A DNA stretch of 4,068 bases from Patescibacteria group bacterium (GCA_004321885.1 SCQK01000011.1:1-4068); one strand, 5' to 3'. Positions 1 to 4,068 are shown, counted from the first letter of the stretch. Notes: generated by a model not told the origin, from the letters alone. Translations and numbers: made by a program.

Positions 1-55
1 GGATATTATCATTAATAATTTTGAGCAGGTGTTTGGGTGGACGAAGAGGGTGAAG

Positions 56-137
56 TTGTAAGGCGAAGCTTCGCAATCGCGGCAGGGCTCGGAAATGAAA
101 TTAAAATTTCATTTCACTCGCCCTTTGCGATTGTAGG
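56..137. repeat. Imperfect palindromic repeat element, copy A (REP/MITE-like), lying between a possible upstream gene end and the ATPase promoter
   Basis: Seen in sequence. There is a 12-bp perfect palindrome GCGAAGCTTCGC at 63-74. There is a perfect 11-bp-stem, 2-nt-loop hairpin GAAATGAAATT-AA-AATTTCATTTC at 92-115. Outer arms CAATCGC (74-80) and GCGATTG (127-133) pair around it, and AGGGC (84-88) pairs with GCCCT (120-124), giving an imperfect stem-loop of about 60 nt. The termini TTGTAAGG (56-63) and TTCACTC (113-119)-N10-ATTGTAGG (130-137) recur in copy B downstream. Confidence 0.55.
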
Positions 138-151
138 TGTGGATTCAGAGC

Positions 152-180
152 TTGACAAAAAGTTGTACTAATTGTATGAT
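152..180 (+). promoter_or_regulatory. Sigma70-type promoter: -35 TTGACA (152-157), 17-nt spacer, -10 TATGAT (175-180). Predicted TSS is near 187-188, about 22 nt before the ATG at 210.
   Basis: The -35 hexamer is an exact consensus match. The -10 matches TATAAT at 5 of 6 positions. The 17-bp spacing is optimal. The block sits directly upstream of the ATPase ORF in an AT-rich leader with no Shine-Dalgarno sequence. Confidence 0.6.
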
Positions 181-209
181 GAAGTTATAAAATAGTATTA
201 CTAATTATT

Positions 210-1388
210 ATGTTTTATTCACGCAAAATCCTCCCCTTTTTGAAGCAGCATCTAAAGAAGCGGCCGATTACGGTTATTACCGGGATGAGACGAACCGGCA
301 AAACAACGTTGGTAAAGCGTCTTTTGGATTTGGCGCCGGCAAAAAACAAAATTTATCTTGATTTGGAATTGCAATCCAATCAAGATATTTTCGCTCCAAG
401 AAATTATGATGAAATAATCCAAACCCTGCGCCGCCGTGGTTTGACGTTTGAACAAAAAGTATATATAGCGATAGACGAAATTCAGCTTGTACAAAACATT
501 CCAAGTATCTTAAAGTACCTTTATGATAATTTTGATATTAAATTTATTGTTACTGGTTCCAGTTCGTATTACATGAAAAATTTATTCGCCGAATCTCTGG
601 CCGGCCGTAAAAAAATATTTGAGCTTTATCCTTTGGATTTTGGCGAATTTCTTGATTTTAAAGAATTTCCGCGCGCGCGCGCAAATAATTGGCAGAGCAA
701 ATTTAATGTGGCGGAATACGAAAGAATCAGGATGTATTATGAAGAATACGTGGAATTCGGCGGTTTTCCGGAAGTGGTTTTGGCAAAAATCGCCGCTGAT
801 AAAAAGGAATTGCTGGACGATATTATTAGTTCATACATAAAAATTGACGTGGCGACTCTTTCGGATTTTCATGATCGGCAAAATGTTTATGATATAATCA
901 AGATGCTGGCAAGCCGCGTGAGCAACAAAATTGATTTTTCCAAACTCTCTCGTTTATCCGGAATTTCGCGAACGATGGCGCGGAACTATCTTGGTCTTTT
1001 TACCGATACCTATCTTGTTGCGCAGGTGCCTGTTTATACCAGAAATCGCGATCGTGAAATAGTAAAAGCAAAAAAATTGTATTTTTGCGACAACGGACTG
1101 CTGTCTTTTTTGGCAGACGTCGGCAGCGGGGCGAAATTTGAAAATGCCGTTTTTAACCAGCTCCGTCATAATGGGCAAATTAGTTATTTCTCACTTAAAA
1201 ACGGTAGGGAAATAGATTTTGTTTTGGATGAAAAAATAGCTTTTGAGGCAAAGGAAACGCCGACACAGACAGATTTAACCAATTTGAAAAATTTGGCTAA
1301 AACGGCCGGTTTGAGGAAACACCGTCTGATCGGCCGGCGACGGTCTCCCGTTTTTAGTGATTATATGTGGGGGGGAGAAATAGTATGA
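210..1388 (+). CDS. AAA+ superfamily ATPase, AAA_14 N-terminal domain plus DUF4143 C-terminal domain (COG1373-like 'predicted ATPase'); function unknown; 392 aa
   Basis: This is the 392-aa ORF from the supplied track. Walker A GMRRTGKTT sits at aa 25-33 (nt 282-308). Walker B hhhhDE is YIAIDEIQ at about aa 85-92, followed by a sensor-like IVTGSSS. The DUF4143 hallmark FSKLSRLSGISRTMARNYLGLFTDTYLV...KKLYFCDNGLL matches my recollection of the family consensus LAKELGIS..TV..YL..LE..FLI...KIYFYDTGL. The C-terminal GREIDFVLDEK (D336, nt 1215-1217) and IAFEAKE (E346-x-K348, nt 1245-1253) resemble a PD-(D/E)xK catalytic motif. ATG 210 leaves about 24 residues before the P-loop, which is typical for this family. 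Confidence 0.92.
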   Translation: MFYSRKILPFLKQHLKKRPITVITGMRRTGKTTLVKRLLDLAPAKNKIYLDLELQSNQDIFAPRNYDEIIQTLRRRGLTFEQKVYIAIDEIQLVQNIPSILKYLYDNFDIKFIVTGSSSYYMKNLFAESLAGRKKIFELYPLDFGEFLDFKEFPRARANNWQSKFNVAEYERIRMYYEEYVEFGGFPEVVLAKIAADKKELLDDIISSYIKIDVATLSDFHDRQNVYDIIKMLASRVSNKIDFSKLSRLSGISRTMARNYLGLFTDTYLVAQVPVYTRNRDREIVKAKKLYFCDNGLLSFLADVGSGAKFENAVFNQLRHNGQISYFSLKNGREIDFVLDEKIAFEAKETPTQTDLTNLKNLAKTAGLRKHRLIGRRRSPVFSDYMWGGEIV

Positions 1389-1470
1389 GAAATTAATTTT
1401 GAGATAGGGGGCGAAATTCGTTGTACGGTAAAATAGGGGGAGAGAAAATTAAAACCAAAAAAATTCAGCT

Positions 1471-4068
1471 ATGCTTGTCTGGCTGAAAATAATCTATTTC
1501 CGCTTGAAGCACAAATTGTTTGGCGTATTTTTACGTCGTTCGCTGAAACGAGCGTTCTCTTTGGTACCCTCCCCTATTAGGGGAGGGACAAAGGGTGGGG
1601 TTTCTCGCCATCGCCGCCAACGCGGCTATGGCCGGGCTGTCATTGCGAGCGAAGCGAAGCAATCCCATGCGTATTTAAGAAATGCCCTGCTTTTTTGTAA
1701 GGAATTGCTTCGTCGCTTCACTCCTCGCAATGACATTGTGGGCCTTCTCCACCCCCGCCACTTTCGCGCCGCCATCGCCTCGCTGGTCATCATCACCATA
1801 CTTCTCAATATTTTCAAACCGGCGCCGAGCAATATCGCCTATGGCGCCACATACACTTTTACCCAAACATCGTGGAGCGGCGGCGCCAGTTCTACCGCAG
1901 TGGCCACGCATGCCAGCGACCAGAGCGGGTGGAATAAATATGTTACGCTCGTGGATGGCGGTTTAGCGGGTCATTGGAAAATGGATGAAGCAAGTTGGAA
2001 TGGCACGGCCAATGAAGTGCGGGATAATTCTCAAAACAGAAATCATGGCGTGGTTTCCGGTTCAGTTCCTCTCTCAAATACCACCGCGGACGCGAAATAC
2101 AGCCGAGCCGGGAGTTTAGACGGCAATGACGCCGTAGTAGTTAGCGACTCCTCCAGTTTAAGGCCGGCGCAGCTCACAGTCTCTGCCTGGATTAAACCAA
2201 ACGGCGTTCAAGTCGGCGCTGCTAGAATCCTTGAAAAATATTGGGGCGGCGCTCCGACTTGGGATTCTTTTGTTTTGCGCTATGGATATACAGACAACGG
2301 AGAAAATCCAAACGCCATTACTTTTGACATCGGCAAATCCGGCGGGTGGACTGGTTGCATCAGCACTTCAACCAGTTTTAGCGGTGTATGGTCATTCATT
2401 GTTGGAACGTATGATAAGCAAAGTTTAAAAATTTATGTGAATGGTCAATTAGACAATGGCAACTGTCCGGAAACAGCGGATGTTATTTACACCAGCGGCG
2501 CTTTAAATATAGGTAAGTACGAGGGCGGCTCGGGCTTCAATTATAATGGCATAGTTGATGATGTTCGTGTCTATAATCGCGCCTTGTCCGCCTCTGAAGT
2601 GCGTAATTTGTACCGAGACACTTATCCGGATACTATTTCGGCCGGCGCCATGGTGCAACTGGCCTACATCAGTCCCACCTCTACGACCAGCACTTACTCC
2701 ACTGGCACCTCCACGCTCATCTCTTCTATTTTTGACGCTGGTGACGCGACCAATGTGGTCTCTAACATAAAATGGACAACCACGACCCAGCCGAGCGGGA
2801 CAGCCATTCTTTTTCAATTGCGCACAGCCAGCACTTCGGCTCTTGTTGACTTGGCCACTTTCGTAGGGCCGGATGGCACAGCCAATACATATTTTACCGA
2901 CCCCACCGGCGCGCAAAACACCACCACGACCATGCGCGACGGGGCCAACGACAGATTTTTTCAATACAAGGCGATTTTGACCACGACTAACGCGCTTAAT
3001 ACCCCCACCCTTGACCGGGTTCAAGTAACTTATGTTGTTAATGCCCCGCCTGAGGTGCAAAATGTGGTGGCGACAGCTAATGACGATGGCACGGTTACTG
3101 TTTCTTATCAAACACGCGATACAGACACTGATTCTGGCACTTTGGCCAATCGTTACAAAATTACGCCCTCGTTCCAATATTGTCCAAATGGCACGGGGTG
3201 TCAAAGCATTACCGCTCTCACGGCAAGTTCCACCGAGGCCAAAGCCGTGGCCACTTCCACTTGGACCACCCATACCGCCACTTGGACTCCGGCCACGGAT
3301 TTTTCCAACACCTATGACACTAATGCCGTAGTTAGAGTTACCGCCAACGATAACGAAGAAGCTAATAATACTGGTTCAGCCAATTCGGTTGGCTTTACTT
3401 TGGATACTATTGTTCCAACTTCCAGCGCTGTCAGTGTGAATGCTTCTGTTTCGCCTGTCGCTCTTGCTCTCTCGTCCTCGGATAGCTCCACCCTCTACAT
3501 GAAAATTTCTTTGAACAGCGATTTATCCGGCGCCAGTTGGCAAAGTTACGCCACAACCTCAACTATTACTCTGGCCAATCCCACCAGCACTGTCTATGTC
3601 CGCTATAAAGACGCGTATGGCAATCAGTCGTCAATTCTTTCCGCCGCTCCCCCAGAACAGCCAACTAATGCTGTTGTCCAAGACACAACAAATATCCTTA
3701 ATGGTCAGACGGATTATCGCCTGTTTATCGCCTGGAAAAAAATTGCCACGCCTGCTTCTGGTTTTGCCAATTACAAAGTTTATCGCGCCACTTCCACTGG
3801 CGGCAGTTATTCTCTTGTTGGCACTGTAATTGACATTAACACAAATTTTTTTACCGACACTACCACTGCCTATAATACTGATTATTACTATTACATTACG
3901 GCCACGGATAATTCCAGCAGCATCTCCTACAAGTCCTCAATCTTAAACGGCAAAGCCAACGGCACCCAAGACGCGGGCGAGGGCGGGGGCATCATACCGG
4001 CGGCCAACACCCCCACCATTTCCAATGTCGCCACTTCCTCGCCCACACCCTCGTCAATCACCATTACC
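1471..4068 (+). CDS. Large secreted or membrane-anchored surface protein, 5'-partial at the window end. N-terminal signal-anchor helix, then a LamG/concanavalin-A-like lectin domain (Laminin_G_3 type), then Thr/Ser-rich beta-sandwich (FN3/Ig-like) modules. It continues beyond 4068.
   Basis: My manual translation of the frame with codons at positions congruent to 1 mod 3 is stop-free from the TAA at 1450-1452 to the window end. The track omits it because there is no stop in the window. The first in-frame ATG is 1471. An in-frame GTG at 1738 begins a textbook signal anchor, VGLLHPRHFRAAIASLVIITILLNIFKPAPS. LamG hallmarks span about 1990-2630: ...LTVSAWIKPNG...WSFIVGTYDKQSLKIYVNGQLD...NGIVDDVRVYNRALSASEVRNLY. 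FN3-like hallmarks lie downstream: YKVYRATSTGGSYSLVGTV...TDTTTAYNTDYYYYITATDNSS. The composition is rich in T/S/A/G/N and low in charged residues, which fits an extracellular protein. The start is uncertain. ATG 1471 would give a basic tail of about 89 aa that contains the repeat elements. GTG 1738 gives a classical signal peptide but sits in GC-rich structured sequence. Confidence 0.8.
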   Translation, partial: MLVWLKIIYFRLKHKLFGVFLRRSLKRAFSLVPSPIRGGTKGGVSRHRRQRGYGRAVIASEAKQSHAYLRNALLFCKELLRRFTPRNDIVGLLHPRHFRAAIASLVIITILLNIFKPAPSNIAYGATYTFTQTSWSGGASSTAVATHASDQSGWNKYVTLVDGGLAGHWKMDEASWNGTANEVRDNSQNRNHGVVSGSVPLSNTTADAKYSRAGSLDGNDAVVVSDSSSLRPAQLTVSAWIKPNGVQVGAARILEKYWGGAPTWDSFVLRYGYTDNGENPNAITFDIGKSGGWTGCISTSTSFSGVWSFIVGTYDKQSLKIYVNGQLDNGNCPETADVIYTSGALNIGKYEGGSGFNYNGIVDDVRVYNRALSASEVRNLYRDTYPDTISAGAMVQLAYISPTSTTSTYSTGTSTLISSIFDAGDATNVVSNIKWTTTTQPSGTAILFQLRTASTSALVDLATFVGPDGTANTYFTDPTGAQNTTTTMRDGANDRFFQYKAILTTTNALNTPTLDRVQVTYVVNAPPEVQNVVATANDDGTVTVSYQTRDTDTDSGTLANRYKITPSFQYCPNGTGCQSITALTASSTEAKAVATSTWTTHTATWTPATDFSNTYDTNAVVRVTANDNEEANNTGSANSVGFTLDTIVPTSSAVSVNASVSPVALALSSSDSSTLYMKISLNSDLSGASWQSYATTSTITLANPTSTVYVRYKDAYGNQSSILSAAPPEQPTNAVVQDTTNILNGQTDYRLFIAWKKIATPASGFANYKVYRATSTGGSYSLVGTVIDINTNFFTDTTTAYNTDYYYYITATDNSSSISYKSSILNGKANGTQDAGEGGGIIPAANTPTISNVATSSPTPSSITIT
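1567..1587. repeat. Perfect GC-rich palindrome/hairpin CCCTCCCCT-ATT-AGGGGAGGG with a 9-bp stem and 3-nt loop
   Basis: Seen directly: 1567-1575 is the exact reverse complement of 1579-1587. No U-tract follows (the downstream sequence is ACAAAGGGTGGGG), so it is not a canonical intrinsic terminator. It lies 180 nt after the ATPase stop and inside the stop-free frame of the downstream gene. Confidence 0.7.
1639..1741. repeat. Imperfect inverted-repeat element, copy B: arms of about 25-31 bp at 1639-1663 and 1704-1734, a 40-nt loop, and terminal ATTGTGG (1735-1741)
   Basis: The left arm is GTCATTGCGAGCGAAGCGAAGCAAT. The right arm ATTGCTTCGTCGCTTCACTCCTCGCAATGAC is its reverse complement apart from a roughly 6-nt insertion. 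It shares TTGTAAGG (1694-1701), GCTTCG/TCGCAAT and TTCACTC (1717-1723)-N11-ATTGTGG with copy A at 56-137. Every frame translates to VIASEAKQS / LLRRFTPRND / DCFASLAMT-type peptides. I recall, unverified, that these are hallmark pseudo-peptides of a widespread palindromic repeat family. The overlapping small track ORFs 1626-1832(-), 1675-1911(-) and 1682-1966(+) derive from this element. Confidence 0.6.

Follow-up and report, generated by a model that had tools for sequence, protein, structure and literature searches.

Is the ATPase gene carried by a short contig of a Patescibacteria group bacterium (GCA_004321885.1 SCQK01000011.1:1-4068) enclosed by two copies of the same mobile palindrome, or does it lie between two hairpins of different origin? 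The stretch analyzed here, called the window throughout, is the contig of 4,068 nucleotides (nt). It contains two long imperfect hairpins, A (56-137) and B (1639-1741), about 1.6 kb apart on either side of a sigma70-like promoter and the ATPase open reading frame (ORF). A sequence-only reading had placed both hairpins correctly, and both folded into stable structures, at -32.9 kcal/mol with a z-score of -4.73 for A and at -38.5 kcal/mol with a z-score of -4.93 for B. It had further taken them for related copies, in the same orientation, of one family resembling repetitive extragenic palindromic sequences (REPs) or miniature inverted-repeat transposable elements (MITEs), between which the promoter and the gene could be delivered or excised as a cassette. 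Our analyses point to another arrangement, which we consider probable, namely a self-contained ATPase gene, an orphan hairpin A and a stray solitary element B, with no homology between A and B and no cassette bracketed by repeats.

Hairpins A and B Are Unrelated to Each Other

Formal alignment of A and B by the Smith-Waterman method gave a score of 19, which was equalled by 139 of 2000 dinucleotide shuffles and is thus at chance level, and a search for repeats seeded with 7-nt words did not join the two as direct repeats. Hidden Markov models (HMMs) of the family to which B belongs (see next section) recognized only one of the two. The full-element model matched B from 1734 to 1639 with an E-value of 9.6e-20, over model positions 1-81 of 81, and matched nothing else in the window; neither this model nor those of the long and short arms produced any nhmmer match on A at E<=100, with the --max option and the filters off. 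The proposal that A and B are related copies was therefore not borne out.

The strings that had been quoted as shared (GCGAAGC, TCGCAAT, TTCACTC at 113 and 1717, and ATTGTRGG) are literally present, but they occupy non-equivalent places. The string TTGTAAGG stands at 56, where it overlaps the stop codon TAA (59-61) of the upstream gene, and again at 1695, inside the spacer of B. The words GCGAAGC and GCTTCG common to both hairpins have their source in a perfect palindrome (63-74) at the foot of A, and the ATTGTGG that follows B is not part of the element but holds a GTG at 1738, the probable start codon of the next gene. The stems are also of opposite polarity, TCGCAA...TTGCGA in A and TTGCGA...TCGCAA in B, and the common orientation attributed to the two hairpins has no meaning for A; B lies on the minus strand relative to the consensus of its family. 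Since the longest exact word common to A and B is 8 nt, they offer no substrate for recombination. Judged by these comparisons, A and B are unrelated, non-homologous elements, so that the ATPase gene is not bracketed by two copies of a single one.

Element B Belongs to a Palindromic Family Present in Many Phyla

Element B, whose true limits are 1638-1735, aligned end to end with the members of a family of two-armed palindromes. Models built from 24 two-armed viral copies matched its short arm at 1666-1639 (E 3e-9) and its long arm at 1734-1702 (E 7.6e-13), both on the minus strand. The members of the family comprise a long arm, (C)GTCATTGCGAGGAGCGNAGCGACGAAGCAATCCA, a non-conserved spacer and an inverted short arm, TGGATTGCTTCGCTTCGCTCGCAATGAC(G). 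B carries the long-arm sequence GTCATTGCGAGGAGYGNAGCGACGAAGCAATCC (1734-1702, minus strand) and, within the distance of 10-87 nt that separates the arms of the family, the inverted short-arm sequence GGATTGCTTCGCTTCGCTCGCAATGAC. Its spacer measures 34-35 nt; that of the family, counted between the ends of the HMM matches, has a median of 19 nt and is not conserved in sequence. In each arm of B, a head (C/TGTC), a clamp (ATTGC...GCAAT) and a tail resembling CCA together form a frame. The heads of B are TGTC (1638-1641) and, as its complement, GACA (1732-1735), and its tails are CCC and TCC; most family copies have CGTC heads and the consensus tail is CCA(G).

We scanned IMG/VR and one genome per GTDB species with a 28-nt pattern corresponding to the minus-strand arm of B with two positions left free, and recovered it in 67 viral contigs and in at least 120 genome stretches. 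Among the matches listed, the genomes belonged to Alpha-, Gamma- and Deltaproteobacteria, Bacteroidota, Chloroflexi, Omnitrophota, Armatimonadota, Spirochaetes, Bacillota, Verrucomicrobia and Marinimicrobia, with Bradyrhizobium, sphingomonads, Chryseobacterium, Rikenellaceae, Anaerolineae and Opitutaceae among the named taxa. The element is also unannotated in plasmids of Novosphingobium, Methylosinus and Methylocystis. In 187 loci selected by the arm itself, a sample biased to exact long arms, we counted 409 arms, of which 175 were solo and the others formed 117 outward-headed hairpin pairs (105 of them long plus short), the head-to-head arrangement that B also shows. Truncated arm heads (GTCATTGCGAGGC... 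and TGTCATTCTGAG...) were observed in tandem arrays beside full arms in three phage-like or cyanobacterial contigs (L029, L013, and L409).

Rfam contains no model for B, and at E<=5 the best Rfam scores of A and B were 19-21 bits (E about 1) against gathering thresholds of 44-84. The sequence-only reading thus stands for B, a palindromic repeat of REP/MITE-like character that is present elsewhere in very many copies; it does not stand for A, which is no detectable member of any family. The window copy of this cross-phylum palindrome is solitary and carries no gene.

Hairpin A Is an Orphan Stem-Loop

Hairpin A consists of an outer stem (GCAATCGCGG/UUGCGAUUGU), a middle stem (GGGC/GCCC) and an AT-rich inner stem (GAAATGAAAT/ATTTCATTTC), and is situated 12 nt past the stop codon of the upstream gene and 17 nt ahead of the -35 box of the ATPase promoter. 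The pattern of its outer and middle stems had no match in 596 Gb of GTDB genomes, the patterns of the whole hairpin and of the inner hairpin had none in viral contigs, and nhmmer and blastn searches of the fetched loci matched only A itself and its copy in a Logan contig. The further copies that membership of a repeat family would have led one to expect thus did not turn up, and A is an orphan stem-loop with no second copy in the GTDB genomes, viral contigs and fetched loci scanned. Most likely, it is a local 3'-end or insulator stem-loop, which would shield the ATPase promoter from read-through; a role as insulator or terminator, suggested before for both hairpins, is plausible for A.

The ATPase Gene Is Probably a Self-Contained Unit

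The ATPase of 392 amino acids (aa) matched the Pfam domains AAA_14 (E 5e-32) and DUF4143 (E 2e-26) and the PADLOC single-gene defense candidate PDC-S01 (E 4e-63); NCBI has an identical protein under the name 'ATP-binding protein'. Its gene has a GC content of 39.7%, vs. 50.2% for the downstream gene, which encodes a LamG-domain protein, and the shift occurs near 1450-1550, before B. An operator-like motif with a palindromic core, AGTAWTACT, occurs once in the interval separating the -35 and -10 boxes and once immediately ahead of the start codon; a partial third copy (1378-1395) lies over the stop codon. The same promoter layout and, at the same places, the motif were recovered upstream of AAA_14/DUF4143 homologs of about 60% identity in other Patescibacteria (L069-L082), which points to a repressor site that these genes have in common and that may be auto-regulatory. 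A terminator-like stem followed by a T-rich tail (1537-1564) is the likely site at which the ATPase transcript ends. Equipped with a promoter, operator-like repeats and a probable terminator of its own, the gene would be independent of the two hairpins.

The nearest relative of this ATPase is 66% identical, and there are thousands of close homologs, many of them on contigs that hardly exceed the gene in length. In 216 kb surrounding 17 homologous ATPase loci we found no B-type element. Nine homologous genes are preceded or flanked by hairpins, tRNA genes or terminators that differ from one locus to the other and are unrelated in sequence. The neighbors vary as well, the homologs being located after a tRNA gene (L069, L070) or, in Nealsonbacteria, between ruvC and yebC (L075-L077), two genes that are adjacent in another lineage whose ATPase is elsewhere (L082-L083). 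In contigs of the Jacksonbacteria type (L078-L081), ATPase homologs are interleaved with giant LamG/NosD proteins and with repeated 23S_rRNA_IVP (four-helix-bundle) genes. The variable sites are consistent with movement of the gene, a candidate defense gene that looks self-contained and may well be mobile; none of these features depends on recombination between A and B.

L079 and L080 differ by one LamG plus IVP unit, as if by recombination between IVP copies. In L071 an identical hairpin, TATTTCAAGGAAAAYRATTCCTTGAAAT, is present twice (about 9,930-9,960 and 12,270-12,300), each time directly against the -35 box of one of two neighboring ATPase paralogs, and hairpin, promoter and gene may have been duplicated there as one unit.

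Comparison of Element B With Known Repeat Classes

The closest counterparts of B are the CGTC-tagged REPs. According to the survey that described them (Di Nocera, De Gregorio and Rocco 2013, BMC Genomics 14:522; PMC3733652), they have an unpaired CGTC head (often TGTC, with CCTC also allowed), a stem of 8-9 bp starting with AT, a loop of 4-5 nt and a CCA tail, occur mostly as head-to-head dimers in five phyla, and include dRS3 of Neisseria and RPE-4 and RPE-6 of Rickettsia. From the REP-encoded peptides in its supplement, we inferred the sequences CGTC-ATTCCCGC-GAAA-GCGGGAAT-CCA for CGTC-1 and CGTC-ATTGCCGGG-CTTGA-CCCGGCAAT-CCA for CGTC-3. Compared on this basis, B resembles the CGTC REPs in its C/TGTC head, in its AT-starting stem with the ATTGC...GCAAT clamp of CGTC-3, and in a head-to-head dimer layout with variable spacer that is found in several phyla as singletons and dimers. 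It differs from them in that its arm lacks a stem of 8-9 bp and a loop of 4-5 nt of its own and in that its arms form a long/short heterodimer. Within one arm of B only ATTGC/GCAAT (5 bp) pairs, around a non-palindromic interior of 12-18 nt (GAGGAGCGAAGCGACGAA), whereas the 8-bp stem ATTGCGAG/CTCGCAAT forms between the arms only. Moreover, no peptide derived from B figures among the intragenic REPs of that supplement. In view of the non-palindromic interior and the absence of the peptide, B is best regarded as a variant within or next to the CGTC superfamily rather than as one of its four described families.

The same survey states that CGTC REPs seem to have no transposase of their own and that no REP-associated tyrosine transposase (RAYT) is flanked by them. 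It reports no enzyme for them, whereas the family of B is associated with a gene for a GIY-YIG nuclease (see next section). Pairs of inverted REPs (REPINs) and their RAYTs (Bertels and Rainey 2011) are similar to the B family in having two inverted REP-like arms and a spacer that form a hairpin, in their many solitary copies, and in rare inverted copies on either side of a small nuclease gene. Unlike in the RAYT system, the flanked gene is of the GIY-YIG/UPF0213 type (PF01541) and not a Y1 (HUH) transposase, and the arms of B are near-identical across phyla, whereas REPINs are described as lineage-specific and vertically inherited.

Like MITEs, B is short, non-coding, intergenic, bounded by terminal inverted repeats and present in many copies. 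We rejected this assignment, B being without a target-site duplication (its flanks ...GCCGGGC and TTGTGGG... contain no direct repeat) and no parent insertion sequence with a transposase being known. Both A and B share with intrinsic terminators a stable stem-loop between same-strand genes, but a scan for intrinsic terminators found no T-run after either of them on either strand, and the terminator-like site of the window is a separate one (1537-1564). Integron attC sites are, like B, imperfect palindromes with conserved ends (RYYYAAC/GTTRRRY in attC), a variable center and bulged bases that distinguish the strands. The ends of B, however, are GTCATTG/CAATGAC, and neither an integrase nor a cassette array accompanies it, so that B was not retained as an attC site either.

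CGTC-Type Palindromes Flank Genes for Small GIY-YIG Nucleases

Only one of the 187 arm-selected loci contained a GIY-YIG gene, and more than 99% of the copies were solitary. This locus (L154, Sphingopyxis) has a frameshifted GIY-YIG gene of about 99 aa that lies between two arms in inverted orientation. We then assembled a second sample of 80 metagenomic loci (L206-L285), picked solely by protein similarity to the GIY-YIG family PF01541. B arms were present within 200 nt of the GIY-YIG gene in 48 of these 80 loci and on both sides in 35, with a density of 4.16 arms per kb beside the gene vs. 0.24 per kb further out. The loci without B arms mostly have other CGTC REPs, such as ATTCCCGC, ATGCCGGA and further types. 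When any head of the form [CT]GTCAT[TCG] was counted in the 75 loci with both flanks, a CGTC-type head was found beside the gene in 70, on both sides in 54, and as an outward-facing pair around the gene in 42; controls with random pseudo-genes gave 1/400 and 3/400. All six records from cultured organisms that we considered (L406-L411: Aeromonas caviae, Rhizobium sp. CIAT894, Spirosoma oryzicola, Planktothrix agardhii, Neisseria gonorrhoeae with dRS3, and Novosphingobium aromaticivorans) exhibited the same flanking. Small GIY-YIG genes of this kind are thus almost always flanked by B-type or other CGTC palindromes, which in most cases face outward as a pair.

Complete hairpins to the left and right of the gene, in direct or inverted orientation, are also common, and the wider sample ruled out the idea, derived from L154, that the B arms around the GIY-YIG gene are exclusively single long arms in inverted orientation. 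In L210, the hairpins on the two sides of the gene are identical, spacer included. The only solved relative of the protein, a UPF0213-like GIY-YIG domain of about 95 aa, is the uncharacterized UPF0213 protein BH0048 (PDB 1ZG2). GIY-YIG proteins flanked by the same repeat type were on average more similar to each other (58.2% identity) than those flanked by different types (54.0%; 0 of 2000 permutations), but this co-variation, although real, is confounded by phylogeny and was not taken as evidence of specific recognition.

A gene that is nearly always flanked and a repeat that is nearly always solitary form an asymmetry resembling that of RAYTs and REPs. By analogy, B-type elements would be non-autonomous palindromes spread or maintained in trans by the GIY-YIG nuclease, as REPs and REPINs are by RAYTs; alternatively, they would be preferred landing sites of the GIY-YIG gene, the nuclease homing into the palindromes instead of mobilizing them. 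We tentatively propose, as a possibility to which we give somewhat less than even weight, that CGTC/TGTC palindromes (B-type, Neisseria dRS3-like CGTC-1, and CGTC-3-like) constitute a REPtron-like system whose enzyme would be the stand-alone GIY-YIG protein of about 95 aa (UPF0213/YhbQ-like) encoded between an outward-facing pair, the orphan B of the window being a non-autonomous offshoot. We found no publication linking CGTC REPs to a GIY-YIG nuclease in a search that covered the subscription literature thinly; queries combining GIY-YIG and repeats returned only fungal mitogenome and unrelated work, and those with the repeat sequence or its peptide strings no relevant paper.

Layout of the Window and Neighboring Features

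The features of the window are compiled in Table 1.

TABLE 1. Features of the 4,068-nt window, with the evidence for each.
Feature	Position	Strand	Basis or description
3' end of upstream gene	2-61	+	last 19 codons, open frame ending in DIIINNFEQVFGWTKRVKL, stop TAA 59-61
Perfect 12-nt palindrome GCGAAGCTTCGC	63-74		read from sequence; overlaps foot of hairpin A
Hairpin A	73-134	+	thermodynamic fold, z -4.73
Sigma70-like promoter of ATPase gene	152-180	+	TTGACA 152-157, 17 nt, TATGAT 175-180; 11/12 matches
Two operator-like repeats, AAAAAGTTGTACTAATTG and AAATAGTATTACTAATTA	157-174 and 190-207	+	core AGTAWTACT; overlap and follow promoter
AAA_14 + DUF4143 ATPase ORF, 392 aa	210-1388	+	Pfam and PADLOC matches
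Terminator-like stem CGTTCGC-TGAA-ACGAGCG, then T-rich tail	1537-1564	+	consensus scan
Mini-palindrome CCCTCCCC-TATTA-GGGGAGGG-ACAAA-GGGTGGGG	1567-1600	+	second widespread repeat family
Element B, short arm TGTC-ATTGCGAGCGAAGCGAAGCAAT-CCC	1638-1666	-	short-arm HMM match, family alignment
Element B, variable spacer, 34 nt	1667-1700		
Element B, long arm TGTC-ATTGCGAGGAGTGAAGCGACGAAGCAAT-TCC	1701-1735	-	long-arm HMM match
Large LamG-domain surface protein	1738-4068, runs off contig	+	Laminin_G_3 E 5e-26

The gene downstream of B probably starts at the GTG that lies 3 nt past the element. Read from this codon, the protein has a basic N-terminus followed by a membrane helix, and its homologs begin with a short N-terminus and a hydrophobic segment. 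These homologs are only about 35% identical, and orthologous loci were not found among them. B would be a passive insertion in the spacer between the ATPase and LamG genes, beside the mini-palindrome and immediately ahead of this start. Frame 1 is open from an ATG at 1471 straight through both palindromes into the LamG gene, so that gene callers can wrongly extend the LamG protein across the repeat. The gene call on the Logan contig begins at this ATG, and repeat-derived peptides (PSPIRGG..., VIASEAKQS..., and LLRRFTPRND) can be fused to the LamG protein by annotation pipelines.

The mini-palindrome represents a second family, unrelated to B, whose copies do not share conserved flanks. Its gapped pattern CCCTCCCCN{3,8}GGGGAGGGN{2,8}GGGTGGGG had at least 120 matches in viral contigs. 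Some copies have a matching CCCCACCC on the left too, or are arranged as inverted pairs.

The Logan contig, an independent assembly from run SRR8426592, corresponds exactly to positions 91-1636 of the window; its start falls inside A and its end 2 nt short of the TGTC with which B begins. Candidate causes for these ends are graph branching induced by repeats, insertion polymorphism, or loss of coverage at the hairpins.

Alternative Explanations

Several observations weigh against the reading of A as an orphan and B as an unrelated stray, and most of them concern A. The orphan status of A was established with its own genome seen only as the 4,068-bp contig, and A could belong to a REP family unsampled in that genome. 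Directly after its 3' stem stands GTAGG (133-137), and it is by the tag GTAG that the 2013 survey (PMC3733652) defines the other superfamily of REPs; A could thus be a decayed or different REP, or the tag may be there by chance. A chain of exact words shared by A and B reached 26 nt, a value attained by only 4 of 3000 shuffles and 8 of 1014 other segments of the window, although this test is inflated because A and B are both palindromes, in which each common word is counted twice, with its complement. Both ends of the Logan contig, at 91 and 1636, may be branch points of the assembly graph. Two further points concern the nuclease, whose link with the palindromes is an association drawn from sequence data, and for which the source metagenome-assembled genome, seen as this contig, provides no GIY-YIG gene.

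In the alternative that survives best, A would be a degenerate or differently tagged REP (GTAG-tagged, or a rearranged B arm) and the ATPase gene would lie between two REP-class elements that are not direct repeats. The words GCGAAGC, GCTTCG, TCGCAAT and TTGCGA are indeed common to A and B above shuffle expectation, the Logan contig breaks inside A, and the place of A, downstream of a coding region and between same-strand genes, is the usual one for REPs according to the survey, from which the GTAG tag is also known. We nevertheless regard this alternative as unlikely. No second copy of A was recovered in the GTDB genomes, viral contigs or fetched loci, the HMM of B is blind to A, and the polarity of the stems is reversed; by our estimate, a tag of 4-5 nt has a chance of roughly 5% of standing beside a hairpin end; and A, with 62 nt and three stem segments, is larger than the REP units that have been described.

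Somewhat less probable still is that B was co-opted as a hairpin in the 5' leader of the LamG gene, where it would control translation or mRNA stability, a role compatible with a selfish origin. The end of B at 1735 and the probable start at 1738 would fit such a role, as would the arms that, in several GIY-YIG loci and in phage-like contigs, stand in the same orientation at a distance of between a few and about 20 nt ahead of a start codon; the unrelated contexts of most family copies argue against it. That promoter and ATPase form a cassette which entered, or can leave, through recombination between direct copies of one palindrome, a model for which one could invoke the hairpins on both sides and a compositionally distinct, self-contained gene with homologs at varied sites (at ruvC-yebC in Nealsonbacteria, elsewhere in another lineage), is very improbable given the lack of homology between A and B, whose longest common word of 8 nt is at non-equivalent positions, the homologous ATPase loci that are devoid of B elements and whose flanking hairpins all differ, and a right-hand GC shift that precedes B.

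Implications

For the window itself, the outcome is mostly deflationary: what remains near the candidate defense ATPase is an orphan hairpin together with one stray palindrome of REP-like type. It also has a bearing on annotation, B being open in the frame of the LamG gene, so that gene callers fuse repeat-derived peptides to real proteins. What needs explaining is an arm of about 30 nt that is near-invariant across the genomes of Patescibacteria, Proteobacteria, Bacteroidota, Chloroflexi and other groups. The link with the GIY-YIG gene offers a testable candidate for what spreads or maintains the CGTC-type REPs, including dRS3 of Neisseria and the RPEs of Rickettsia. If this link holds true, the GIY-YIG nuclease would supply the 'missing transposase' that was absent from the 2013 survey of CGTC REPs.

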